Source of the DNA: a virus
Taxonomy: Duplodnaviria > Caudoviricetes
IMG/VR virus record: IMGVR_UViG_3300033121_002354
Span: 32,001 to 96,000 of that record
Strand: one strand, 5' to 3'
DNA length: 64,000 bases
Each line of letters starts with the position of its first letter. Positions within the stretch are counted from its first letter, which is position 1. A program made the translations under genes and the position numbers. This document shows positions 1,721-52,537 of the stretch, one piece after another. The notes under the pieces were generated by a model. That model ran no database searches. It was not told the DNA's origin and worked only from the letters and a program-made list of their open reading frames with translations.

Positions 1721-2472
1721 TTTCCGAAGATAAATTCATTGTTTATCATGATGACGCGGCGTATGAAAATACGTTAGACAATCTAGATCAATATACGCAT
1801 GTACTTGTGTTTAAGAAGGTTATGTATTTAAAAGATTCACAATTTATATCTTTTATTAGTTCTTCGGTTTGTCCCAATACAAATGTTGACTATGTACCTG
1901 ACTTAAATACGTTGTTTGCTTTTTACGACCAAAAAATGAATAAGCTTTTTATTTGTGACAGATATGGCATTATTAACATTGAAATGTCTTCGGAAAACTG
2001 GATTACTAAATTACCAAAGTTTTTTGGATATGTGATATCAGCCGACAAACTAACTATTAATCAGTTTAAACTAATGTTGCAGAAAAAATGGGAGCCTGCA
2101 AAAGTCGCTCCAAAGGTAAATGCACCAAAACCAAAGCCAGAGAATTCTTCCAAAAAAGAGTATTTGCATACCAGACTTAGCGGCAAGATTAATGTCTTAT
2201 CCATAAAAAGAAAAGATGGAAGACCGCTAGAATTTGATGGAAAATATGATTTTGTGAACGTTAATGATTTGCCATCAAACTATATGACCAACAGGGAAAT
2301 TCTGAAGTTGTTTAAAGAGAAAAAGATAGAGTTAGTAGATGAGAATTATTACAGAACGCATAAAAATAAATATGTGAAACTAACTAACGAACTCATTATA
2401 AATAAGTCTGTAAGCAAGTACGATCCGGCACAATCACCTATAGCCGCAGAGATGGAAATAGACGGAGATTAG
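1693..2472 (+). CDS. Hypothetical protein
   Basis: 259-aa ORF overlapping the upstream GT; no recognisable motif. Confidence 0.7.
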   Translation: MEKTIFANIVSEDKFIVYHDDAAYENTLDNLDQYTHVLVFKKVMYLKDSQFISFISSSVCPNTNVDYVPDLNTLFAFYDQKMNKLFICDRYGIINIEMSSENWITKLPKFFGYVISADKLTINQFKLMLQKKWEPAKVAPKVNAPKPKPENSSKKEYLHTRLSGKINVLSIKRKDGRPLEFDGKYDFVNVNDLPSNYMTNREILKLFKEKKIELVDENYYRTHKNKYVKLTNELIINKSVSKYDPAQSPIAAEMEIDGD

Positions 2473-2478
2473 GTATAA

Positions 2479-3582
2479 TTGCATGTGCAGTGCAACTATC
2501 ACCTTTATCTTAATAACACTGGCTATTCTTGTTCATCCCAAGACTATTTAATAGCGATTTTACAAGCTAATCCCAGCTTGGATTTGAGAATAAAAATAAT
2601 TAACAACAGGATTTTGGGAGTTTCCCCAGAAAGAAATGATCTATTTTTAAAATTATCACAAAAGGAATTGTCAGAGGAACATGCATCAATTTATCACTGT
2701 ATTCCTACGGCATATCCAAAAGATGACAAAAGCAAGGTAAAAATAGGTTTCACTGTTTACGAAACCATTGATCCGCCCAAAGAATGGATACACGAAATGA
2801 ATAAGATGGATTTGATTATTACTCCATCTCATTTCAATAAAAATGTGTTTGTAACAGGGGGACTAAAAACAAAATGCGAAGTTGTGCCACACTGTTTCAA
2901 TCCTGCATTATTTAATGACGAAGTAAGGTGCAATGGCAGATATAACAAGTTTACTTTTCTATCTATGGGGACGTTTCGAAAGAGAAAGAATTTTGATCTT
3001 TTAATAAACGCATTTTATGATGGGTTCACTAACAAGGATAACGTGTGTCTTTTGATAAAGACTGATAAAGGCAAACAGATGGGGCATTTGGTTAATTCTA
3101 TTAAGGCAGATAATTACAAAAGTAAGGATACTGCTCCAATTTATGTGGATGATGAAATACTGGACTTTGAAGACATTCCATCTTTTATGAAGAAGGCAGA
3201 TGTATTTGTTTCACCTTCGGCTGGAGAGGGTTTTTGTCTGCCAAGTATGCATGCTTTGGCTCTCAATATTCCAATTATAGTCACAAAATATGGAGGAGCC
3301 TTAGAATACGCCAAACCAGAGTTTAGCACCTACTTTATTCCGTATGGATATACCAAAAAACCAGTTTTGGATGGCTTTCCTCAGTTTGCTAACAAAATAT
3401 GGCCCGACATTAAAGTGTCAGAAGTAAGAGACAAAATGCTGTTTGCCTATCATTCTTTATCAGCTCTACAAAAAATCACGAGAGATGGATACCAATTTGT
3501 ACATGACCACTTTAATTACAAAATTATTGGGCACAGATTTGTTAACGTAGTTGAGGAAACAATTAATGCACATATCTCTTAA
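2479..3582 (+). CDS. Glycosyltransferase family 4
   Basis: TGYS, FTVYET, TPSHFNK, VPHCFN, RKRKNFDLLINAF, SPSAGEGFCLPSMHALALNIPII; the second Glu of E-x7-E is replaced by His. TTG start. Confidence 0.88.
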   Translation: MHVQCNYHLYLNNTGYSCSSQDYLIAILQANPSLDLRIKIINNRILGVSPERNDLFLKLSQKELSEEHASIYHCIPTAYPKDDKSKVKIGFTVYETIDPPKEWIHEMNKMDLIITPSHFNKNVFVTGGLKTKCEVVPHCFNPALFNDEVRCNGRYNKFTFLSMGTFRKRKNFDLLINAFYDGFTNKDNVCLLIKTDKGKQMGHLVNSIKADNYKSKDTAPIYVDDEILDFEDIPSFMKKADVFVSPSAGEGFCLPSMHALALNIPIIVTKYGGALEYAKPEFSTYFIPYGYTKKPVLDGFPQFANKIWPDIKVSEVRDKMLFAYHSLSALQKITRDGYQFVHDHFNYKIIGHRFVNVVEETINAHIS

Positions 3583-4633
3583 TCCGCCAAGCGGTTTAGA
3601 TAATTCCTATTTTGATGTTGAATTCACTATAAATTTCGACAATTCTCTAAAACATAAACCGACAAAAATTAAGTTGTTCAACGAAATTCAACAGCTTAAC
3701 ATATTAGCCACGAATAATTGTGTAATTAGAAATAACGAAATTGTTTGTGATAAAACTCCATCAATTTTGTCTGGGTATATAAACCTTTTTAACGATGACA
3801 AAATGAACCAAAAACTGTCCACATATGTAAAAATGGCTATAAAATGTACAGTTGATGATCTAACCACTAAAGAAACTTTTACTAGCGACACAGTGTTTTA
3901 TAACGAAAGCTTTTCTGTAGATCAACAAATATTGCCATTTTCGTTAAAAGTCCCCGAAGAAACTGATTTTACCGAAGACATTTTGATCACTATTACTACA
4001 GACAAAGAAATGAAACTCCATTTACAACTAGAGTCTGCTCACAAAGAGTTTGATTTTCATGTAGTAACCAAGAATGGTACTACTGACATAAAAATTCCTA
4101 GAGAAATGATTTTTCATGAAATAATTACTGATGAAAGTGAAAAAATATCTTTTAACTATCTTAAGGAAAGCGGGATTACCCCTTTTAACACTGTAAATAG
4201 AAAAAAGATAAAAATCCCAAATTGCACAACCAAGGTAGTCAGCACAAATCTTGTGTTAAACCCACAAACTAGAAAAGGACCATTAGGCAACGATTTAGAC
4301 GAAACAGAATTTATTCTAAGTGACAGATATTTTGTTCCGGTTATCAAGGATTACACAAACCTGAAAACGCCTGTTAAAAACATAAAAACTATTTATGGCA
4401 ACATTTTTAAAAATGAGATCTTAGAAACACAAAATACCGATTTAATGCCAGAGCCAACAAAAAATAATACTAAGCCCATAATAAAGAGCGAAGATAGTTT
4501 CTTTAAACACGTTTTTAACACTTACAATTCAAAGTCGAGACAGGTTTCTCCTCAGCAAGCCTTAAAACTTGATAAACCCGACACACATACAGGAGACTGT
4601 GGATGCAAACGAAAAAAGACCCAATTGTCTTAA
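3566..4633 (+). CDS. Hypothetical beta-rich protein, possibly virion-associated
   Basis: ORF track start 3551 (TTG); ATG at 3566 has GAGG upstream. Ends in GDCGCKRKK. Confidence 0.7.
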   Translation: MHISLNPPSGLDNSYFDVEFTINFDNSLKHKPTKIKLFNEIQQLNILATNNCVIRNNEIVCDKTPSILSGYINLFNDDKMNQKLSTYVKMAIKCTVDDLTTKETFTSDTVFYNESFSVDQQILPFSLKVPEETDFTEDILITITTDKEMKLHLQLESAHKEFDFHVVTKNGTTDIKIPREMIFHEIITDESEKISFNYLKESGITPFNTVNRKKIKIPNCTTKVVSTNLVLNPQTRKGPLGNDLDETEFILSDRYFVPVIKDYTNLKTPVKNIKTIYGNIFKNEILETQNTDLMPEPTKNNTKPIIKSEDSFFKHVFNTYNSKSRQVSPQQALKLDKPDTHTGDCGCKRKKTQLS

Positions 4634-5457
4634 ATGAAACTCAAAAAACGTTGTTTGACAGATTGGCATCCGTAGCACCAGTTTATGCATATGGACCATA
4701 TCTACAAAACATTTTAAAGGGTCTCCCAAACAAGTATCAACCCGTATCTTTGAATCTGATTTCTCCTCAACGACTGGATGAAGAAACGTCGCAATTAATT
4801 GAAAGCAAGTTTTCTCCATTATTTTCTCCAGTCAAAAACGACAGCATGTATTTCTTTTATCACGAAGGCATAAACTTTGTGTGGCTTTTTATGCCAGATT
4901 TTAATCCAAATATCATAAACACTCAAAATGGTATTACAATAGACCAGGTGTTTTTAAACTTAAACACTTATTCTTTGTTGGACCCAACCAGTGCAGGCAT
5001 CTCTGATATAAAAAACGATCCAATCATTATAAGGACTACAGCAGCAAAAGATAAGTGGGACAACGATTTGGTTGCCAATATCCTTATTAAGATAAGTTAT
5101 TTCCAAAAAAGCGAAGTGTCAGAAGAAGATTTGAAAATTATAAATAATATAGACAACTTATCTATACCAGATCTATCAGTCATATTGTGGATGCCATACC
5201 CTTCTAATACTATAAGATTTTTGCTTAATAATACAAAAAATGGCATGAACACAATATTTGATTCATTGTTGCGTTTGGCTCCCAACCTAGAAGTTGCTGT
5301 TCCAGAAACAGTATCTCCTAAGCAGGTTTTTTCACCTAAAAATCTTAAATTATTAGATGTTTACATAGATTATTTTGAAAATCAAAAAGTAGCACTCAAA
5401 AATAATCACAGAGAAAAAACCTTGCTAAAAATTCTACTACATGGGGAAAAAGTTTGA
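4603..5457 (+). CDS. Degenerate CCA-adding enzyme / poly(A) polymerase head-domain homologue, probably inactive
   Basis: VYAYGPYLQNILKG resembles xYxVGGxVRDxLLG; GITIDQVFLNLNTYSLLDPTSAGISDIKNDPIIIRT resembles RDFTINAxxxxxxxxxLIDPxGGxxDLxxxxIR. Catalytic DxD and RRD are absent. Confidence 0.6.
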   Translation: MQTKKDPIVLNETQKTLFDRLASVAPVYAYGPYLQNILKGLPNKYQPVSLNLISPQRLDEETSQLIESKFSPLFSPVKNDSMYFFYHEGINFVWLFMPDFNPNIINTQNGITIDQVFLNLNTYSLLDPTSAGISDIKNDPIIIRTTAAKDKWDNDLVANILIKISYFQKSEVSEEDLKIINNIDNLSIPDLSVILWMPYPSNTIRFLLNNTKNGMNTIFDSLLRLAPNLEVAVPETVSPKQVFSPKNLKLLDVYIDYFENQKVALKNNHREKTLLKILLHGEKV

Positions 5458-8400
5458 GCTGCATAGACCAATGTACAGTTGGACAAATATGCACGCAAAC
5501 ATTTCCGCCCAAATGTTCTCCATTAGTTAATCAGTCGTGCATGTCATCGTGCCTGAGTTTGATACAAACTCCACCGCCAGGAACCGGTCCATTTGGACCG
5601 CCGCCAACTCCACCGAATACACCACCTCCACCTGCAGATTATTGCAGTGGCACATGCAACTGGGAAATTCCAACATGCCTAGACAATCCTTTTGATAGCA
5701 GCACAACAGGATCTTCAAGCACAGCCAGTTCGTGCGTAGCAGAAGAATGCAGTTCGGGCTGTTGTTGCTGTGATTCGCTTGTAGTTGCTGACATAATTAA
5801 ACCGCGTTGTTATGACAGAGTAACTGTTTCTTGCAACTCTGACGGAACAGCTACAGGTGGCCCAAATAGCGTGCCATTCCCGTTGAGTTGCGACAGTTGT
5901 TTCGAAGCGTGCGATTTAATAATTAATGATCCAAATGGGTGCAGCAAACTTTCTACACTTTCATGGTGGGATTTAGGAAATACCAGTTGCTCTTGCGAAT
6001 GTAAGAATTTATCTGTTGTTGATGGCTGCTTATTGCATTGTGCTTATTGCGGGAAATGCGATGCTGAAATCACTATACAGAATAGCCCATGTGAATATAA
6101 GCTAATAGTATCTCCAAGCTCTGACTGTTGCACAGACAACAAAAAAGAAACAGTACAGATAATATTTTTTAACGTGGGCAGTTATAACAATTCGGTTTCT
6201 GGACCAGATCCATTAGTTAAACCAGAAGAGATTCTTCTTTTTCAGCAAAAATTATCAGAACTTAGAACTATATGCACGAATAACGGGATAAACATTTATG
6301 GAGATAACGGTCTACAAGATGGCATAACTAAAGGCAGAGCTTTTTGTGATCCTGGTCCGTGCTGTCCAGATGCTATATATGCAAACGAAACAGAAGCTGC
6401 AGCTTATATAATGGGCAATTTGCAAGCCGTTGAACCACCACAAAGAATAGAAATTGTCATTCTTGTACACGGATTTATTTCAGATTCTTCACAAGATGCT
6501 TGTACAGACATAAACTGGCCTGGATATCCTTCTGACTTCTTTAAATGTCTAGAAACACATAATGCAAAAATATCCACTATTGAATTTAACCGGAATATGA
6601 CGGATTCGTATTTCTCTTCTTTACCGCAAAATGTTGGAGCTAATGAAAATTGTGGCTCTGGAACTATGGGATATCAAAATTGTCGCCCTTCCAGTTTCTG
6701 GCCATCTGACAAGGTAATTGGAAGCATTGCTGCGGGTCCAACAGAGGACCAGTATGATGAATTATGGGCATTAATTACTAGACAAAAACCAATTACTAGT
6801 TGCGACTGTATTGATTCAGAGCCAAAAGTTTTCACTTTTGATAAAAAAGATTGCTCCCCCCGCACTTTTGATGTATGCGGAACAACGATAGTCATTGACA
6901 CCGAAGATATAAACATGGTTTGTTGTGAAGATATCGGCTGTGAATGTTCACAGCCATGTTGTACACCACCACCAAATAGCTGTGCTTGTGGCACAAATTG
7001 CACGGAAGTTTGTAGTAATGGGACAAAACTTTTTCCAAGTTTGTCTGCTGCTATAGAAGCAGTATGGGGAGAATGCAAGTCAAATGCCATTAGCGAAGAT
7101 GATAATGGATGCATAAAAGTCAGAATGAACTCTAATATTGTACAGATTTGCAAAGCTGATATTGAAGCACAAGTAACAGCAGCTTGGTTAGAATGTGAAG
7201 AATGTACTGGTCCTGACTGCGGATCGTGTATCGGTCCAGATTGTCCGTGTCCACCTGGAAATTCTGATTGTAACGGTCCATGCACAGGACCAGATTGTCC
7301 TGATTGTCCCGAAGGAGATCCAGATTGTAATAACTGTACTGGTCCAGACTGCAATAATTGTGATGGGCCAGATTGCCCAGATTGTCCACCTGGAGATCCA
7401 GATTGCAACACCTGTATTGGTCCAGACTGTGATATACCAAATGGACCCGGACCAGATGATGATTGCATAGGGACCAATTGTGATGGTTCTGGTTCGAATC
7501 CTCCACCTAACTTAGTGTGTACTGCAGATGAAACAATCAGTCCGAATGACGACTGTTTTTCTGTTAGACATCCTGATGTTGTTGTTCTAAATAACGGAAT
7601 TGGATTGGTTGCTTTTGAAGATGATTCAGATCCTTCTGTCATAAAAATAAAGCAATTTAAAACAAGTATCGAAAACAAGGTGCAGGCAAACCGTACATTA
7701 AGATTTGGAAGATTACAAAATCCATCAAAATGGATTATTACACAATCTGGACTTTATAGGGTAAAACTTTACCTATATGAAAATATAAGCAATGTTCAGG
7801 TTGGAGATGGGATTTTCTTTTTCAACGGACCATTAGCCAAACAAGCGTTTATCTTGACCACTGTAAGCAGTGACTCTACTGGAGACTATTTAGAATTCAG
7901 TATCAATCCAACAAATGGTTTTGAGTTTAGTGGTAGCTATGAATCTAAAACAGATGACAGATATGATGTACAATGGATAACTTACGACCAGAATGACACA
8001 GGACTTATTGGAGACAGACCACTTCCGACTGGGGTCGAGGCAGATTTGGACGCCACAAAAGAAGATGTGGATTCAATACTTATATTGCCTCCCCATTACT
8101 TTGATGGCAAGAAAGTTCCAGTTGCATATCCAAGGATTACGAACAGCGATAACTACGATAATAATTCAGAAAATTCACAGTTTGTGTATGTTGCATATCA
8201 AGCCTTAGAAAATAAAACATGGAGAATATACTTAAGGCAACTTCGATTGTCAGAGTTTAAAAAGTCAGCAGATGTACTACTAACTTCTGACAACATTTCC
8301 AGTGTAACACCAGAAAATACAAACGAAATCGTTTGGACATGTAAGTCAACATGTATAAGTTATGATTGCGAATCAGAAACTAAAATTGCCACCATTACTT

Positions 8401-32000: not shown

Positions 32001-32495
32001 TTTTCTTTTGCTGAATCAGAATTAGAGATTTACATATCAAATAATGGGGCAAGCTTTTTTGGAGTCGGAGATTTAACACAAAGTACAGTAACCAATATAT
32101 CAAAGATGATATTTTTCAAAAAAATACTTTGGGTTGCCACAGATCAGGGTCTTTATTCTGATTCAGGTACTGTTTTTTCAGACAGAATTCAGTTTGCTCT
32201 TATACAAACATCTGACTCTTTCAGTACTTCACAATCTGCAATAAATGATTTAAGTACTGACGGGGAAATACTCTATGCAGCTCAAAGTGATGGAACCCTT
32301 CTATTTTTTAAGGACGATGCCTGGAACCGATTTGATACAAACCTGGGGACGTTGCAAAAAATACAGGTTATGAGCGATGGATATATAGCTTGTTTGGGGT
32401 ATAATACTGGGATCGTAGTTAACATAAACAGCCTGAACTCCGATTCTGAACCAACAAATCCTGTTACAGTAATTGATTTGGGAGCATGTACATAA
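26076..32495 (+). CDS. Giant FN3-repeat / BNR beta-propeller structural protein (tail-fibre/adhesin-like)
   Basis: 2139 aa. N-terminal DGVISGWEV...VAPGSG motif; several FN3 domains (LSWNSNSETDFSHYNIYRS...YYYKVSSVDTSGNES); HRH motif; BNR motifs SDNFGQSW, SQDKGEKW, TFDFGTTW. Confidence 0.85.
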   Translation: MPLFTEQYHLASFLQGDVYSSTLDAARMICCDNQLSLISDIIQDGVISGWEVSSENFPVITVAPGSGMVDGFFVSTQNSVNFTLESNTTSYVLIKRISDLTVANGCVSDLLQIIYTDLTAPASPSGLSAVNNYLNSNAPSNSMIIDLSWNSNSETDFSHYNIYRSTNNSDFDFVSESESSTFSDSLLQEDTTYYYKVSSVDTSGNESSFSAASVTTPITTFLPPNPKNVVIYPSNESISVCWEEPANFSTDLISNYLITYSLLDTDNSVISTKSISVNSSAVCEKITLLENNHKYLITLYTVDTQSRQSTGLTSISIPTNGLNDPQNVLASSSATESAANVKLSLSWTPPGDEYSTSTNLKYRIYTTIDKYGTTESRPVETTIGQTSIDLRLINYSTGYRSIPEQSVVTTRITTLQLDGKESKGILVRTKIGKYTTPQKVRNPNASFDLKKITVTWGNNSDTYKVKVTTYKKQANEPYSDYAFVSEVVLQNTNVFIVDTPDLDFTYKFVLTPIDKYGTTGESSSLTIDIPAATELQDILAPNNFVGSGFDGIINLKWQRPTDENNLITKFLVYRAQGEGVLDFAEFSLIDELSPNITHYSDYGVDPDQTYTYFIVSEDLYGRQSLNPSNGYYNINTVSVSAPISSGLEPVVGHVSLAGNDIVLEWSNLPGETFDSFEILRSIDNRNSWISIATVNTEELTTDYSYTDTNIATTNGQKFYYVIRKISNNSSVVISGDLTEENTLLIATAITSDSSVTTNNDVKRNLANLHDPIIEKTDASLLLHRHGGSKSFDPEKVDLNSSLIVTDWTTTDGKTWKTTEDISEGEIYDLSVNSEFPTVIYKVFSDESKILFADPISTTSLLKLTVYGINEVSNILSVDKFDNIHARQIALGRLTLDQLPDLDHNGVTKEPIYPIRSTLKMYDTHTYQSNASDKLFGDATTFFAITDKSAIVEEFQSFDNSTVGTTVLFNNPENDSYTIDNIVSGSSEVTVEQAFDGDKSYKVTIKFKDTQPQRWVKLNTSGFNPVVNLSKHLGFRIMVMSGSFYLGIGVRKSENGETTPGSDGGITNSQGKIGDIEFVGVTEVTEYGDLLVPKGQYLLSERPGFWRDVQFDFTENVHAFTGDGNLSTTTGYATLEHLAITVNTDEEIVFFIDSIEQRSDILAGSTSNGLMTSDNFGQSWSVLRYTETPIHKFYKASINGFLWGISSKKVYYSSNTEQWFEIPGIENVHFVYDIVEDVDGDMFVSTDKGVFILRTATYSAFFELTKTKYVTSLSSSTYAIWYTYPYVYVSTDFGIFKSQDKGEKWTDSGFLSDDPEPILQVSLQDTDLIAISETSVYRKLLNESKFVSLSNITESIDTVTSLWKFDLKNNSIFVSTNDGIYTNVLDVLFDPTVLTAEFDRVFPETETNNIPQPATEIKNINNNLFIATENKLFVSNDTVNLVTNYQSKDSPRFFVDGNEIKTNYTYSCFNNVLSLKIAPGLLSTVEGEQLPRKKYQSSTQWAQRDINADVLIYLNGVPTWIDFAFDTTDFTQKVQDILDNLSGSTEPELRVIQSGNVILTPLVTTKTVSQFLSDYSYLISTNDSMPVTTLNGANNTNRQPKTVDVFSILSVSDLGYTSTLSSLIDFDSFVRAFEGGYLESELQSKLSTAKSNGAGTQYDLAVKTVIDKLNTKTSYTIDTKAEIETELGFSAKNSTGIIIDANHGLFDFTTYLSTNKTSFKKEDKLTVSIFGCTISNIGINSHDQIEDGFEFVNSGMHSSLTDVVTGNFIKNGIFLDRQFGTLEENTTSYIKSYYKSISSGSYDVLNSTVDYALVSSNKEVEIPEIVLSTLWITDEYLGNRLWIGTDVGILEYEFVSGSLNYSRLITINSEYVYINQLLQQNDSILVCTNTTIFETFDFGTTWTELNTKNLPSQINNIGVANGTIIAATSEGLWWSPSDQFGFSKAALTTSSRLAGQNKIDSELAFIGNIINLECNNFSFAESELEIYISNNGASFFGVGDLTQSTVTNISKMIFFKKILWVATDQGLYSDSGTVFSDRIQFALIQTSDSFSTSQSAINDLSTDGEILYAAQSDGTLLFFKDDAWNRFDTNLGTLQKIQVMSDGYIACLGYNTGIVVNINSLNSDSEPTNPVTVIDLGACT

Positions 32496-48850: not shown

Positions 48851-51148
48851 ATGATCACATTAGTATTGGGCAATGTAGATACTCGTATTGTTGGCGAGAT
48901 ATCTGATGAGGAATATTATGACCTCAGAAGATATCTTTCTTTTCGTCCATCTGGTTTTCTTTTTCACCCCCTTTACAGAAAGAAAATGTGGGATGGATGG
49001 GCCAGACTTATTAAGAAGAATAAAGGCGGAATCACCTTTCCAAGCGGGCTTCTTTCTCTCGCAAAAGAAGGATTAACAGAGCTAAATATTCCATTTTGCG
49101 TAAAAGATGGTCGTACAAAACCACAACCAACTCTGGAAATAGAATTAAGCTCAAATATAGTTTTGCGTGATTATCAGGAGCTGATAAAAAATCACTCATG
49201 CAATACAGGAAGAGGTCTTATAGGACTAGCGACAGGCGGGGGAAAAACTGCAACCAGTGCAGCCTTGATTGCCGAACTTAAAGTGAAGCCATTTTTGTTT
49301 TTGGTGACTTCTATAGATCTCTTAGAACAAACAGTAGAAGCTTTCGAAAATTTCTTGGTGCAAAACGGCAAACCTGCAAAGATTGGCAGAGCCGGAAATG
49401 GCATTGTTGATTTACAAGATATTACCGTTATGACAGTACAAACAGCTATGAGAGCTTTAGGGAAGAAATACAAAAAATACGACTCTGAAAGCTCCGACAG
49501 AAAAGAGAACAATGGTGTCATAGCAAAATACCGCAAAGAACTAGTTCACTTTATGACAACATGTCAAGGGGTCATATGTGATGAATGTATAACTGGTGAT
49601 TCTATTGTGCTGACAAAAAATGGCCCACAACGAATGGACAAATTAAAAACAGGGCAGGAAGTGCAGAGTTTAAGTGGTAATAGTGTTGTATGGAAAAAAA
49701 TAACTCATTTTTATCGCAAAGGGAAGAAAAAGACATTCAAAGTCCTGCTGAACAACAACCAAAGCATTCGTTGCACAGCAGACCACTTAATCAGGACAAG
49801 CAAAGGCTGGAAACCGGCAGGTTCGCTAAAACAGAACGACCAGATTTTGTGTTCTGGGAACATGACAGTGGCGGATATGGAGACAGAACTGCATCATTCA
49901 GAACTTCATGCCATCCAGAATTATCACTTATCTATAACATTACTCACGTTAATGGCAAAAAACATCTCTCAGAACAGTGGTTGGACAGAATTGGAGCAAT
50001 CGGAATGGCATGGTGGGTTTGCGATGATGGAAGCAGATCAAAATCATCAATCAGACTTCATACAGAAGGGTACTCGCTGCAGGAAGTCGAGATCGCAGCA
50101 AGCTGGATATCACGTATATACGGAAAAGTTTCCATCTACAAATATAAACATAAAGAATACAGAACACTCGGTCTCGGAAAAACAGCAACCGATAGAGTTA
50201 TTACAGAAATCGCGGAATACGTTCCAAAATGTATGGAATATAAACTTTGCAAGTGTTAACTCGGTAGAACCTTGTGGCGAAGAAGAAGTTTTTGATATAT
50301 CGGTTGAAGACACTCATTGTTTTTTTGCAAATGGAATGCTTGTTCATAACTGTCAACATTGGAGAGCAGACCAGTGTCAAACTGTAACCAAAACTCTCGA
50401 AAATGCATATTACCGTTTTGGAGCTTCTGCCACCGCCTTCAGAGATGAAGGTGATGATATGGCTATTCAATCGTGCTTTGGTAAGTTTTTGTGCAATATA
50501 AAAGCATCTGAACTTATTGAAAAAGGATATCTTGTACAACCAACAATCAACATTGTTCACTATAAACCAAAATTTGTAAAAGGAAACACTTATCAAGAAA
50601 TATACAAAGAGTGCATTGTTGAGGATAAAAAGTACAATGCGTTGGTAGCAACCACAGCAAATAACTATATTAACCAAGGACGATCTGTCCTTATACTTGT
50701 ACAGCAAATTAATCACGGCGAATCTCTCGCCAAGATGATTCCTGGTGCTCTTTTTGTTTGTGGTGATAGTCCAAAAAAAGAGAGAACAGCAGCACTCAAA
50801 ATGCTGCATAGCAGGAAAATAAAATGCATTGTTAGTACATCAATATTTGATGAGGGCGTAGATATACGGTCGCTAGATACACTTTTAATGGCTGGCGGCG
50901 GAAAAGCAAAAACAAGAGCACTTCAACGTGTTGGCAGAGTATTAAGGATATTTGATGGGAAGAAAGATGCTATCGTGATAGACTTTAGTATTCATGTTGA
51001 ATATTTGTTAGGCCACGCAAAAGAAAGAGAAAAAATTTACAGGACAGAACCGTTGTTCAATATAGAACACATCCCAAATAAAAATGACCCACCAGAAGTT
51101 TGGGAAAATCTTGGATTTTCAAATCACAAAACTCAAAAGCTATTGTAG
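48851..51148 (+). CDS. SF2 DExH helicase (UvsW/ResIII-like) containing an intein
   Basis: LRDYQ Q-motif, ATGGGKT Walker A, DE|CQH Walker B after splicing, SATAFR motif III, EGVDI motif V, QRVGRVLR motif VI. Confidence 0.92.
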   Translation: MITLVLGNVDTRIVGEISDEEYYDLRRYLSFRPSGFLFHPLYRKKMWDGWARLIKKNKGGITFPSGLLSLAKEGLTELNIPFCVKDGRTKPQPTLEIELSSNIVLRDYQELIKNHSCNTGRGLIGLATGGGKTATSAALIAELKVKPFLFLVTSIDLLEQTVEAFENFLVQNGKPAKIGRAGNGIVDLQDITVMTVQTAMRALGKKYKKYDSESSDRKENNGVIAKYRKELVHFMTTCQGVICDECITGDSIVLTKNGPQRMDKLKTGQEVQSLSGNSVVWKKITHFYRKGKKKTFKVLLNNNQSIRCTADHLIRTSKGWKPAGSLKQNDQILCSGNMTVADMETELHHSELHAIQNYHLSITLLTLMAKNISQNSGWTELEQSEWHGGFAMMEADQNHQSDFIQKGTRCRKSRSQQAGYHVYTEKFPSTNINIKNTEHSVSEKQQPIELLQKSRNTFQNVWNINFASVNSVEPCGEEEVFDISVEDTHCFFANGMLVHNCQHWRADQCQTVTKTLENAYYRFGASATAFRDEGDDMAIQSCFGKFLCNIKASELIEKGYLVQPTINIVHYKPKFVKGNTYQEIYKECIVEDKKYNALVATTANNYINQGRSVLILVQQINHGESLAKMIPGALFVCGDSPKKERTAALKMLHSRKIKCIVSTSIFDEGVDIRSLDTLLMAGGGKAKTRALQRVGRVLRIFDGKKDAIVIDFSIHVEYLLGHAKEREKIYRTEPLFNIEHIPNKNDPPEVWENLGFSNHKTQKLL
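49586..50350 (+). mobile_element. Intein (255 aa) inserted in the helicase Walker B motif
   Basis: Block A CITGDSIVLT, block B IRCTADHLI, block F VFDISVEDTHCFFANG, block G VHN followed by +1 Cys. Confidence 0.93.
49690..50259 (+). CDS. LAGLIDADG-family endonuclease encoded out of frame inside the intein
   Basis: FRTSCHPEL..NGKK...MAWWVCDDGS...IRLHTEGYSLQEV...YVPKCMEYKL parallels the 43119 enzyme (HP..NGVK..WFLGDGS..FCTNGF..YQYKF). Only one LAGLIDADG motif is visible. Confidence 0.75.
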   Translation: MEKNNSFLSQREEKDIQSPAEQQPKHSLHSRPLNQDKQRLETGRFAKTERPDFVFWEHDSGGYGDRTASFRTSCHPELSLIYNITHVNGKKHLSEQWLDRIGAIGMAWWVCDDGSRSKSSIRLHTEGYSLQEVEIAASWISRIYGKVSIYKYKHKEYRTLGLGKTATDRVITEIAEYVPKCMEYKLCKC

Positions 51149-51157
51149 GTTCCTGTT

Positions 51158-52537
51158 ATGCCAATTCAATTTAAAACGAAGTTCAAATGGGACACCGAAA
51201 CTTCCCCGAACGAAACGTTCCAAAGACCACTGCACGAAGTAATTCAACTCATTCGCCACTTACCAAATCCATACATTGGTAATAAAAAGAAACTGTTGCG
51301 TTCACTTCATAACTTCATGCAGAACAACAACTTGAAATTTGACACCTTTCTTGATGCATTCACAGGAAGTGGAGTTGTCGGGTTGTTTATGAAAGCTATG
51401 GGTAAGCGAGTTATTGCCAATGATTTACTGGCTTGTTCATACTTAAATGCTGTTGCTCTAATAGAAAATTCTGGAACAACTTTGTCTCCAGATCAGATTG
51501 GATCTATTTTGAACAAAAATACGCTAGAAAGCGACTTTGTTCAAAAGAACTGGATGAGCACCTCAAACACGACTCAATTGCGTAGAAGATTTACTGAAAA
51601 TGAAGCTATCCAGTTAGATCACATTAGATCCAACATTAAAAACTTAAGCCAGTTTACCGCTCAAAGTATTGGATTAACAGCAAACAGTTTAGTGTGCATG
51701 AGAATGCCATTCGGTTTTGCTGATAGAAGCATTGATATTTACAACCACCGCAGAAAACAAATAGAAAAGTATGGAAAAGACTCAGGTAATCACGATAGAC
51801 GTATAGGAATTTATTACGATGACAATCTAGATCTTGATTTCAAGAAGTGGTTTCCAAAGTACGTAGGATCTATTAATAAAGCCGTCTTAAACAACTCACA
51901 GATTGTTAATGACGCAAAAATACAACATGCCTTGGCATTCTTCGGTATACAGAATTATTTGTATCACGAAGCATTTAAAGGCGGCAGATTGAACAACGGA
52001 CAAATACTGAAAAGGGTAGATACTCGCAAAGAACAAGATGGAGTGATGAGATTTACCCAAGAAGATGTTCAAAAGATGTCTTTTGCAGAATTAAGCTCTG
52101 TAGGAAAGTGCAGTTGTATTGCTACTAATTGTGACGTTATAGATCTGTTACAAAGCGGATTTGTAGACGTTGAATGTGGTTATTTTGATCCTCCATATGG
52201 TGGAAGTTCAAGTGATTACCTGTCAATGTATCAGTTTTTTGAAGAATTTATCTACGAAGAACAAATTGAAAATCTTCCCCATTTCAAATCTATGGATAGA
52301 TTTTCGAAGAAAACTGATTACGAAAAGAACTTTCTTGATCTGTTAGATGCTGCCAAGAACATTCCTATATGGGTGTTTTCATATAACGATAAGTCATGGC
52401 AGGGTTTAGAGCATATTATTTCCCTGATTAAAAAGTTTAGAGGCCATGTAGTTTCCGAAATTGTGGACTACAAATACAAATACAGAAGCAAAAATAACGC
52501 TGCGGGCAAAGAATATTTGATCGCGGCAACAGTATAA
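51158..52537 (+). CDS. DNA adenine methyltransferase (D12/Dam-like alpha class, M.FokI-type), orphan
   Basis: YIGNKKKL, FLDAFTGSGVVG, VIAND, YFDPPY, FSYN, KEYL. Confidence 0.88.
   Translation: MPIQFKTKFKWDTETSPNETFQRPLHEVIQLIRHLPNPYIGNKKKLLRSLHNFMQNNNLKFDTFLDAFTGSGVVGLFMKAMGKRVIANDLLACSYLNAVALIENSGTTLSPDQIGSILNKNTLESDFVQKNWMSTSNTTQLRRRFTENEAIQLDHIRSNIKNLSQFTAQSIGLTANSLVCMRMPFGFADRSIDIYNHRRKQIEKYGKDSGNHDRRIGIYYDDNLDLDFKKWFPKYVGSINKAVLNNSQIVNDAKIQHALAFFGIQNYLYHEAFKGGRLNNGQILKRVDTRKEQDGVMRFTQEDVQKMSFAELSSVGKCSCIATNCDVIDLLQSGFVDVECGYFDPPYGGSSSDYLSMYQFFEEFIYEEQIENLPHFKSMDRFSKKTDYEKNFLDLLDAAKNIPIWVFSYNDKSWQGLEHIISLIKKFRGHVVSEIVDYKYKYRSKNNAAGKEYLIAATV

Follow-up and report, generated by a model that had tools for sequence, protein, structure and literature searches.

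Here, we report that a phage helicase gene carries an intein belonging, in our reading, to a widespread phage family whose homing endonuclease is encoded in the overlapping -1 frame. In the copy described here, this endonuclease is truncated and likely inactive, and the intein is probably still splicing-competent (probability of this reading as a whole, about 0.8). The DNA is a 64,000-nucleotide stretch of a Caudoviricetes virus (IMG/VR record IMGVR_UViG_3300033121_002354, positions 32,001 to 96,000), called the window below, and positions are counted from its first letter. Out-of-frame intein endonucleases have already been reported in preprints of 2025 and 2026, and the window holds a further case.

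Helicase intein and its overlapping frame

The locus contains the following features.

48851 to 51148, plus strand: UvsW-like SF2 DNA helicase gene, uninterrupted, 765 codons including the intein (open reading frame list, Pfam)
49586 to 50350, plus strand: class-1 intein of 255 amino acids in helicase motif II, between DE and CQH (Pfam Intein_splicing, catalytic residues)
49586 to 49852, plus strand: N-terminal splicing domain, blocks A and B, with block B Cys-Thr-x-x-His at 49772 to 49786 (conserved in the intein frame only)
49690 to 50259, plus strand: endonuclease remnant of 189 codons in the -1 frame, ATG to TAA (open reading frame list, Pfam LAGLIDADG_2, tblastn)
49771 to 49773, plus strand: vestigial family endonuclease start codon, TTG in the window (comparison with relatives)
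49849 to 49857, plus strand: junction of a 151-codon in-frame deletion (alignment of the window with relative L031 in both frames)
49859 to 50247, plus strand: intein-frame spacer of about 130 codons with no stop and no conserved peptide (frame scores across relatives)
49990 to 50034, plus strand: second LAGLIDADG motif, the only one left, GMAWWVCDDGS in the -1 frame (alignments A1, A3, and A4)
50248 to 50350, plus strand: C-terminal splicing region, blocks F and G, ending in VHN (conserved in the intein frame only)

The helicase frame matched Pfam families ResIII (1e-15), Helicase_C (6e-11), UvsW_N (5e-6), and Intein_splicing (69.6 bits; cut-off, 35.8), the last at 3e-18 for the full helicase and 3e-19 for the intein by itself. 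The intein begins with Cys1 at 49586 and ends in GMLVHN, its C-terminal Asn at 50350 being followed by a +1 Cys at 50351. The N-terminal nucleophile, the block B T-x-x-H (as C-T-A-D-H), and the His-Asn/+1 nucleophile arrangement are all class-1 features. Among 79 helicase homologues collected were intein-less forms of 490 to 520 amino acids with DECQH intact; the insertion site is common to the relatives, and empty alleles carry an uninterrupted DECQH or DECHH. The helicase frame of the window is continuous, not split into two host open reading frames by intein-frame stops as in fractured genes. We infer that the intein still splices, because its catalytic residues are intact and a working helicase is needed. 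An AF2 model of the precursor gave pLDDT values of about 65 to 86 for the N-terminal splicing domain and mostly 27 to 38 for the spacer (residues 338 to 462).

The original prediction, made from the letters alone, placed a LAGLIDADG-type domain in the -1 frame beneath this intein (49690 to 50259) and proposed profile searches of both frames. These agreed with it, both matches lying above their cut-offs: Intein_splicing (3e-19) in the intein frame and LAGLIDADG_2 (PF03161; 5.6e-14; 52.9 bits, cut-off 25) in the 189-amino-acid -1 frame. The -1 frame had also been described as open across the N-terminal splicing domain, which is incorrect; it opens only at 49684, 33 codons into the intein, and closes with TAA at 50257 to 50259. 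Its endonuclease-homologous stretch spans 49855 to 50247. The profile match covers the second half only (residues 64 to 157 on profile positions 62 to 156 of 168), in keeping with the original remark that a single LAGLIDADG motif is visible. This motif keeps the invariant G, A, and D-D-G (alignments A1, A3, and A4). Paired LAGLIDADG helices with two catalytic acids are present in Xanthomonas phage FoX3 and in loci L003 to L005 and L027 onwards, and absent from the window.

The 189-amino-acid product matched FoX3 in tblastn (2e-23) and was 55% identical across 128 amino acids to the endonuclease of L031, the closest full-length relative. At the nucleotide level, blastn against the phage collection returned only a 72-nt match in FoX3. 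A scan of viral contigs with the single window protein gave no matches, and the relatives surfaced when an alignment was used as the query. Along the DNA of the endonuclease frame in the window, stops are absent from the intein frame and number 7 to 8 in the third. When synonymous codons were shuffled, the probability of no intein-frame stop, given the endonuclease peptide, was 0.022 in the permutation version and 2e-4 when codons followed extein usage; that of no endonuclease-frame stop, given the intein-frame peptide, was 0.0015.

A family of out-of-frame endonucleases in phage helicases

At least 36 other phage loci (GC content, 25 to 66%), among them FoX3 (L001, the same record as L006), have stop-free intein and endonuclease frames and 1 to 41 stops in the third frame. 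The double openness and the -1 offset are common to the window, FoX3, L003, L004, and L005, and 32 of 38 metagenome loci (L027 to L058; GC content, 0.25 to 0.64) have the same layout, with no intein-frame stop and 9 to 41 stops in the third frame. Their endonuclease frames are free of stops, except for one each in L034 and L051. The original prediction had proposed such a stop count in same-site alleles and had named accumulating stops in the alternative frame as evidence against itself; across at least 36 loci, both frames hold none save those two. Shuffle P values of 1e-3 or lower were reached in full-length loci. In each of the five loci compared, exactly 103 nt separate the endonuclease domain, which ends in YKL, from the end of the intein.

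Conservation changes frame along the intein. BLOSUM sums favored the intein frame in the N-terminal splicing domain (1,411, versus 382 and 332 in the other frames) and in the C-terminal splicing region (865, versus 272 and 274), and the endonuclease frame in the spacer (3,687), where the intein frame scored 603, equal to the third-frame control of 609. The original description of some 130 stop-free intein-frame residues without a recognizable motif was accurate. Selection was measured by substitution counts at codon positions in place of classical dN/dS, because overlapping frames confound the latter and most pairs are highly diverged. Counts at intein-frame positions 1, 2, and 3 were 218, 139, and 450 in the N-terminal splicing region, 37, 55, and 181 in the C-terminal region, and 925, 2,097, and 1,112 in the spacer, where position 2 is the endonuclease wobble position. 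Substitutions concentrate at the wobble position of the endonuclease frame in the spacer and at that of the intein frame in the splicing regions. At the family level, the endonuclease frame is under purifying selection, and the spacer peptide is not. Judged by stops and substitutions in at least 37 loci, selection holds both frames open in the family, as the original prediction proposed; for the window copy, the relic named in its caveat is the better description, and openness there needs no selection. Encoding the endonuclease in an overlapping -1 frame would uncouple its expression from the intein polypeptide, a further predicted property that holds for the family (at least 37 loci, codon-position pattern). 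A chance open reading frame was rejected on the conserved double openness, the shuffle P values, and the frame-dependent substitutions. Frameshift decay from a canonical in-frame endonuclease was rejected on the conserved offset and the selection in the -1 frame.

Full-length relatives encode an I-SceI-like endonuclease of about 310 amino acids with two CxCGCG zinc-ribbon-like motifs. That of L031 spans LAGLIDADG_2 profile positions 2 to 164 of 168, and its AF2 model (pLDDT, 88) shows a predicted doubled alpha-beta-beta-alpha-beta-beta-alpha fold with I-WcaI and I-SceI as best PDB matches (E value, 3.5e-14; target TM score, 0.74; E-value range, 1e-13 to 1e-14). The endonuclease ATG of full-length relatives lies within intein block B. 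This start is present in 29 of 37 relatives, built as xxA plus TGY at the block B Cys, and occupies one position across differing amino acids and GC contents. Of 30 loci, 25 have A as the wobble base preceding that Cys, where the background frequency is 36% (nominal p, 1e-7). Inspection for Shine-Dalgarno sequences was uninformative in the window phage, because most of its genes have no clear one.

Split relatives occur in Pectobacterium phages Ymer, Koroua, Abuela, and Sabo and at loci L002, L016, L023, L059, and L062 to L064. No relative of the family endonuclease turned up among 185,579 prokaryote species genomes scanned by pattern. Among 5.8 billion proteins there were 19 protein clusters of it, mostly on contigs shorter than 3 kb, against dozens of encoding contigs; standard gene callers overlook out-of-frame intein endonucleases.

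State of the window copy and alternative readings

Relative to L031, the window copy lacks both CxCGCG motifs and, with the first LAGLIDADG helix, the catalytic acid which that helix carries. The original prediction had considered a relic of a frame-shifting deletion; the deletion is instead in frame (151 codons), because the frame offset is ancestral. Intein sizes at the helicase site are 406 to 410, 377, 348, 326, 267, 255, 241, 183, 175, 164, 129 to 149, and 0 amino acids. In the DNA comparison of deletion alleles, which covered four besides the window and left out the 241-amino-acid allele P0040, inteins of 326, 267, 183, and 175 amino acids each had a different in-frame deletion, and the endonuclease frame was open in all four. 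Openness is therefore the default outcome, and the open frame of the remnant needs no selection of its own. From these comparisons, the endonuclease open reading frame of the window most likely lost its activity in a recent truncation and survives as a remnant.

The family arrangement may work as follows. The helicase frame would be read straight through the stop-free, sequence-unconstrained, and probably disordered spacer, and the precursor would splice and restore DE-CQH in motif II, as the intact catalytic residues suggest. The endonuclease would be made separately from the internal ATG in block B, for which the conservation of that codon argues, its frame terminating shortly past the endonuclease domain. 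By analogy with its enzyme family, it would cut intein-less helicase alleles and so drive homing. In the window, the single in-frame deletion and the change of the ancestral ATG to TTG would have left an inactive remnant, an early phase of decay in the homing cycle. The helicase would tolerate only deletions in multiples of three that add no stop in its own frame, which would preserve the endonuclease frame too, and the deletion may be recent enough for no stop to have arisen since.

The truncated product could still be functional, as an I-CreI-like homodimerizing single-domain LAGLIDADG protein or as a DNA-binding or maturase-like factor, which we consider quite unlikely. Its second LAGLIDADG domain is complete, with D-D-G and all family-invariant residues of the preserved region retained; the frame is open, and the ATG at 49690, which coincides in position with the first ATG of the FoX3 endonuclease frame, makes translation possible. 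Its branch in the endonuclease tree is neither elongated nor accelerated. Intact residues, a normal branch, and the lack of a stop fit continued selection equally well, and since the tree and the position counts show no clear relaxation of the remnant, neither the date of the deletion nor inactivity is derivable from them; the evidence on purifying selection in the window's own lineage is not decisive. Against function, half of domain 1 and both zinc ribbons are gone, and with them the pseudo-dimer interface and one active-site acid; the conserved block B ATG is absent; and differing deletion alleles are just as open. Searches of viral contigs and protein clusters found no second locus with the same truncation. 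A wider reading, in which the family (at least 37 loci, GC content 25 to 66%, plus split siblings in cultured phages) is a large, ancient, and hitherto undescribed instance of true overprinting, with the start codon and possibly the ribosome-binding site inside catalytic block B, with continuous, split, and deletion forms interconverting, and with a remnant that might act as a single-domain LAGLIDADG protein, is speculative and unlikely as a whole.

Two further explanations concern the frame itself. Programmed -1 ribosomal frameshifting from the intein frame, in place of internal initiation, could yield the endonuclease as a fusion protein, which would suit the -1 offset from the intein and the overlap, seen in every member, with the final part of the N-terminal splicing domain. 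This route is very improbable given a start codon conserved at a single position with a selected wobble A, and given the same open reading frame standing free in the split forms Ymer, L016, and L023; no canonical slippery heptamer was seen by eye near the junction in the window. An endonuclease truly in frame, displaced by two compensating sequencing or assembly indels or by a recent pair of frameshifts, has nothing specific in its favor beyond a run of seven A at 49694 to 49700, the sole homopolymer near the start of the frame. The comparative data refute it, leaving it a negligible chance: the -1 offset and double openness recur in at least 36 independent assemblies, cultured phage FoX3 included, the wobble-position signal changes frame at the domain borders, and split relatives have the endonuclease as a separate open reading frame in the same -1 frame. 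We retain the reading of a truncated endonuclease, probably dead, within a putatively active intein, and annotation of the window should list one intact helicase gene, an intein predicted to splice, and a shortened endonuclease open reading frame that is probably dead.

Relation to known systems

Hidden out-of-frame homing endonuclease genes in inteins are not limited to actinophages and cyanobacterial dnaX but also form a large family in phage helicases. In this family, full-length forms, deletion derivatives, mini-inteins, and empty sites make up a natural series, with continuous and split versions, that suits tests of intein colonization by free-standing endonucleases, of split-intein origin, and of decay in the homing cycle.

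In non-canonical actinobacteriophage inteins, as in the helicase family, the endonuclease is a separate open reading frame overlapping a stop-free spacer, and invasion of the intein by a free-standing endonuclease gene has been proposed (Gosselin, Arsenault, Gogarten, bioRxiv 10.1101/2025.01.02.630785). The host genes of that set are those for DNA polymerase, minor capsid, terminase, and thymidylate synthase, and its endonucleases are LAGLIDADG or VSR-like when antisense and EndoVII-like in sense frame 3 (bioRxiv 10.1101/2025.01.02.630785); a sense -1 LAGLIDADG endonuclease in a helicase is absent from it. In fractured genes, a free-standing endonuclease gene lies between the two halves of a split intein (Dassa et al. 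2009, PMC2677866). Ymer, Koroua, Abuela, Sabo, L016, L023, L059, and L062 to L064 are of this type, with a homologous -1 endonuclease overlapping both halves, whereas the window intein frame is continuous, so that splicing would occur in cis. In the work of Dassa et al. (PMC2677866), the endonucleases are VSR-like and LAGLIDADG is not mentioned.

The full-length family endonuclease has its best structural matches in the monomeric, two-domain enzymes I-SceI and I-WcaI, with which it has Pfam PF03161 in common. They are intron encoded, whereas the family gene is nested in an intein and zinc-ribbon-like modules are added at the N terminus of its protein; of the two domains, the window copy keeps the second only.

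The cyanobacterial dnaX intein carries an out-of-frame LAGLIDADG homing endonuclease in a +2 open reading frame (Phillips, DeSimone, Gogarten, bioRxiv 10.64898/2026.09.14.751524). The helicase family differs in host gene (SF2/UvsW-like helicase motif II), in its phage hosts, and in an endonuclease with two N-terminal CxCGCG motifs and a start codon within block B; the window copy is, in addition, truncated. The likeness, drawn from layout, is that in both systems a sense-strand LAGLIDADG endonuclease lies in the +2 (equal to -1) frame between the splicing regions, over a disordered spacer, with frame-dependent selection and coexisting full, mini, and empty alleles.

Helicase intein and its overlapping endonuclease frame

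The window (G000:C1:32001-96000, from a 113-kb IMG/VR virus record) carries a UvsW-like helicase gene interrupted by an intein, with an endonuclease ORF in an overlapping frame.

48851-51148, helicase ORF, uninterrupted, 765 codons
49690-50259, endonuclease ORF, -1 frame relative to the intein frame, 189 aa, LAGLIDADG_2 (Pfam, 5.6e-14)
51158-52537, D12 adenine methyltransferase gene, next after the helicase and also 3' of it in related contigs

The helicase ORF matched ResIII, Helicase_C, UvsW_N, and Intein_splicing (3e-18; all Pfam). The intein starts with Cys at 49586, immediately after the motif II Asp-Glu, and ends with His-Asn at 50350, followed by Cys-Gln-His; intein-less helicase homologues read DECQH or DECHH at the insertion site. 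The original prediction placed a LAGLIDADG domain in the -1 frame over a stop-free intein frame, and HMM searches of both frames confirmed this, with the LAGLIDADG_2 match spanning only profile positions 62-156 of 168. Over the endonuclease ORF, stops number 0 in the intein frame versus 7-8 in the third frame. In shuffles of the window, the intein frame stayed open in 2.2% of trials when the endonuclease peptide was fixed and synonymous codons were permuted, and in 0.02% when codons were resampled with extein (host helicase) usage; with the intein-frame peptide fixed, the -1 frame stayed open in 0.15%. A 202-codon antisense ORF (50201-50809, minus strand) within the helicase C-extein and the intein end probably stays open by chance, opposite coding sequence.

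Relatives and selection by frame

Xanthomonas phage FoX3 encodes the same endonuclease (tblastn, 2e-23); its annotated helicase CDS is continuous, and the same -1 frame contains an ORF of 252 aa in which both LAGLIDADG motifs are present. RefSeq NC_055837.1 labels the feature that underlies the helicase-intein match "head morphogenesis", GenBank MT161383 labels it "putative DNA helicase", and the intein and the 252-aa ORF are unannotated in both records. Alignment-based scans yielded 24 IMG/VR and 38 metagenome loci, and the double open frame was found in FoX3 (L001, same record as L006), L003, L004, L005, and 32 of the 38 metagenome loci (L027-L058), at GC contents of 0.25 to 0.66. The stop-codon comparison of same-site alleles suggested by the original prediction found both frames kept open: in L027-L058, the intein frame has 0 stops over ~300 codons, and the endonuclease frame has none except one each in L034 and L051, with 9-41 third-frame stops (1-19 in the IMG/VR loci). 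Shuffle probabilities for full-length loci were 1e-3 to <5e-5, and the DEC...GD... start and ...HNC end, where locatable, always lay in the endonuclease +1 frame. Sequencing error was excluded as the cause of the frame offset because the same double open frame occurs in FoX3 and many other loci.

Among 5.8 billion proteins, only 19 clusters of this endonuclease were found, mostly from contigs of <3 kb, where, presumably, truncation of the helicase ORF leads gene callers to choose that of the endonuclease; long contigs systematically lack a call for the endonuclease gene. In L005 (1403-5521), a putative second intein, its endonuclease part in frame, lies near helicase motif VI (...GSGK|CLSGES...HN|SQTRALQRVGR); judging from ORF length alone (1,247-1,406 codons), we infer this insert also in L031, L034, L035, and L038. 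The window lacks it and reads GGGKAKTRALQRVGR.

Comparison of five divergent loci showed conservation of only the intein frame in the N-terminal (1411 versus 382 and 332 in the other frames) and C-terminal (865 versus 272 and 274) splicing regions, and of only the endonuclease frame in the spacer between them (3687, versus 603 for the intein frame, equal to the third-frame control at 609). In 15 closer pairs, substitutions concentrated at intein-frame third positions in the splicing regions (450/807 and 181/273) and at endonuclease-frame third positions in the spacer (2097/4134). Since substitutions and conservation in the spacer follow the endonuclease frame, the sole constraint on the spacer peptide is the absence of stops. 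The AF2 model of the window precursor (helicase domains ~90 or more; splicing regions, 58-86; spacer residues 338-462, mostly 27-38) agrees with this through its low spacer scores.

In the full-length endonuclease ORF (~310 codons), a pair of zinc-ribbon-like CxCGCG...GH motifs precedes two LAGLIDADG motifs. The ORF of L031, the closest full-length relative of the window, spans LAGLIDADG_2 positions 2-164 and was modeled by AF2 at pLDDT 88, with disorder at residues 1-21, in the overlap with the splicing domain. Its best structural matches, I-WcaI and I-SceI (E, 3.5e-14; target TM, 0.74), are intron-encoded monomers, so the closest matches are not intein domains. An endonuclease-frame ATG lies on the Cys codon of splicing block B (xxA TGY) in 29/37 loci (GTG in 3, TTG in 2). 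The wobble base before this Cys is A in 25/30 loci versus a 36% background, across Arg, Lys, Thr, Gln, Ile, Ser, Val, and Glu codons (nominal p, 1e-7, which overstates independence because the sequences are related). The endonuclease may thus be initiated internally at the block B ATG. From the endonuclease domain end to the intein end is exactly 103 nt (5/5 loci measured).

Truncation and state of the window copy

Alignment in both frames showed that the window lacks 151 codons relative to L031, with the end of the N-terminal splicing domain (...ILC) fused to the endonuclease middle (...WEH.SGGYGD...). The deletion took both zinc ribbons and, by comparison with the L031 secondary structure, the first beta-hairpins of domain 1; the first LAGLIDADG helix is gone as well, together with its acidic residue, bearing out the earlier caveat that only the second LAGLIDADG motif is visible. 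The family ATG is TTG in the window (49771), without a purine-rich stretch upstream.

Intein sizes at the helicase site were 406-410, 377, 348, 326, 267, 255 (window), 241, 183, 175, 164, and 129-149 aa, alongside empty sites; inteins of 406-410 aa (>20 proteins) gave no in-frame LAGLIDADG match (Pfam). Four truncated alleles read at the DNA level (L065-L068) each have their own distinct in-frame deletion, that of L066 being nearly complementary to the window's (domain 1 kept, domain 2 lost), and in 4/4 the endonuclease frame is open through to the conserved stop. Only multiple-of-three, stop-free deletions would keep the helicase alive, and these would leave the remnant frame open. As L065-L068 remain open despite different deletions, an open remnant is an expected by-product and not evidence of function.

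The window remnant shows no visible decay: every invariant residue within the retained part is kept, identity to L031 is 55% (splicing domain, 58%; exteins, 44-54%), its branch in the endonuclease tree is not long, and codon-position counts are only weakly shifted. The retained residues, unelongated branch, and identity similar to that of the splicing domain and exteins would suit either a recent deletion or a remnant still in use; its open frame carries no weight for function, L065-L068 being equally open, and we consider continued use unlikely. A recent deletion is favored (probability of roughly 0.8). The original prediction holds in part: the feature is real, but what remains of the endonuclease in the window is most likely dead, within a live intein, and the layout principle had already been described.

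Comparison with known systems

L008 (IMGVR_UViG_3300031998_000134, 1992-5621) reads as a distinct dual-coded intein: a continuous 1,209-codon ORF that looks like a terminase large subunit (0 stops at GC 0.51) is overlapped by an open frame of 455 codons with LAGLIDADG_2 (9.5e-24), a Cys-rich C-terminal part, and a tail rich in Lys and Arg. Its offset is not that of the helicase family, the host frame being endonuclease +2.

Split versions occur at the same helicase site in L002 (Pectobacterium phage Ymer, OP748252.2, 1341-4547), L016, L023, L059, and L062-L064. A stop ends the N-extein/N-intein ORF, the C-intein/C-extein ORF restarts at ATG, and a homologous two-motif LAGLIDADG gene with the CxCGCG motif overlaps both halves in the -1 frame; the annotation of Ymer treats the three parts as unrelated genes. 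The layout of these split relatives is the fractured-gene one described by Dassa et al. 2009 (PMC2677866), except that their endonuclease is a LAGLIDADG.

Out-of-frame intein endonucleases are not new in principle. In actinophages, LAGLIDADG and VSR-like forms were described in antisense and EndoVII-like forms in sense orientation (Gosselin et al. 2025, preprint, bioRxiv 10.1101/2025.01.02.630785), a LAGLIDADG in the +2 frame in a cyanobacterial dnaX intein (Phillips et al. 2026, preprint, bioRxiv 10.64898/2026.09.14.751524), and a hidden HNH in a related case (PMC11855218). New here are the host gene and family, the breadth of the family, the block B start codon, and the deletion series.
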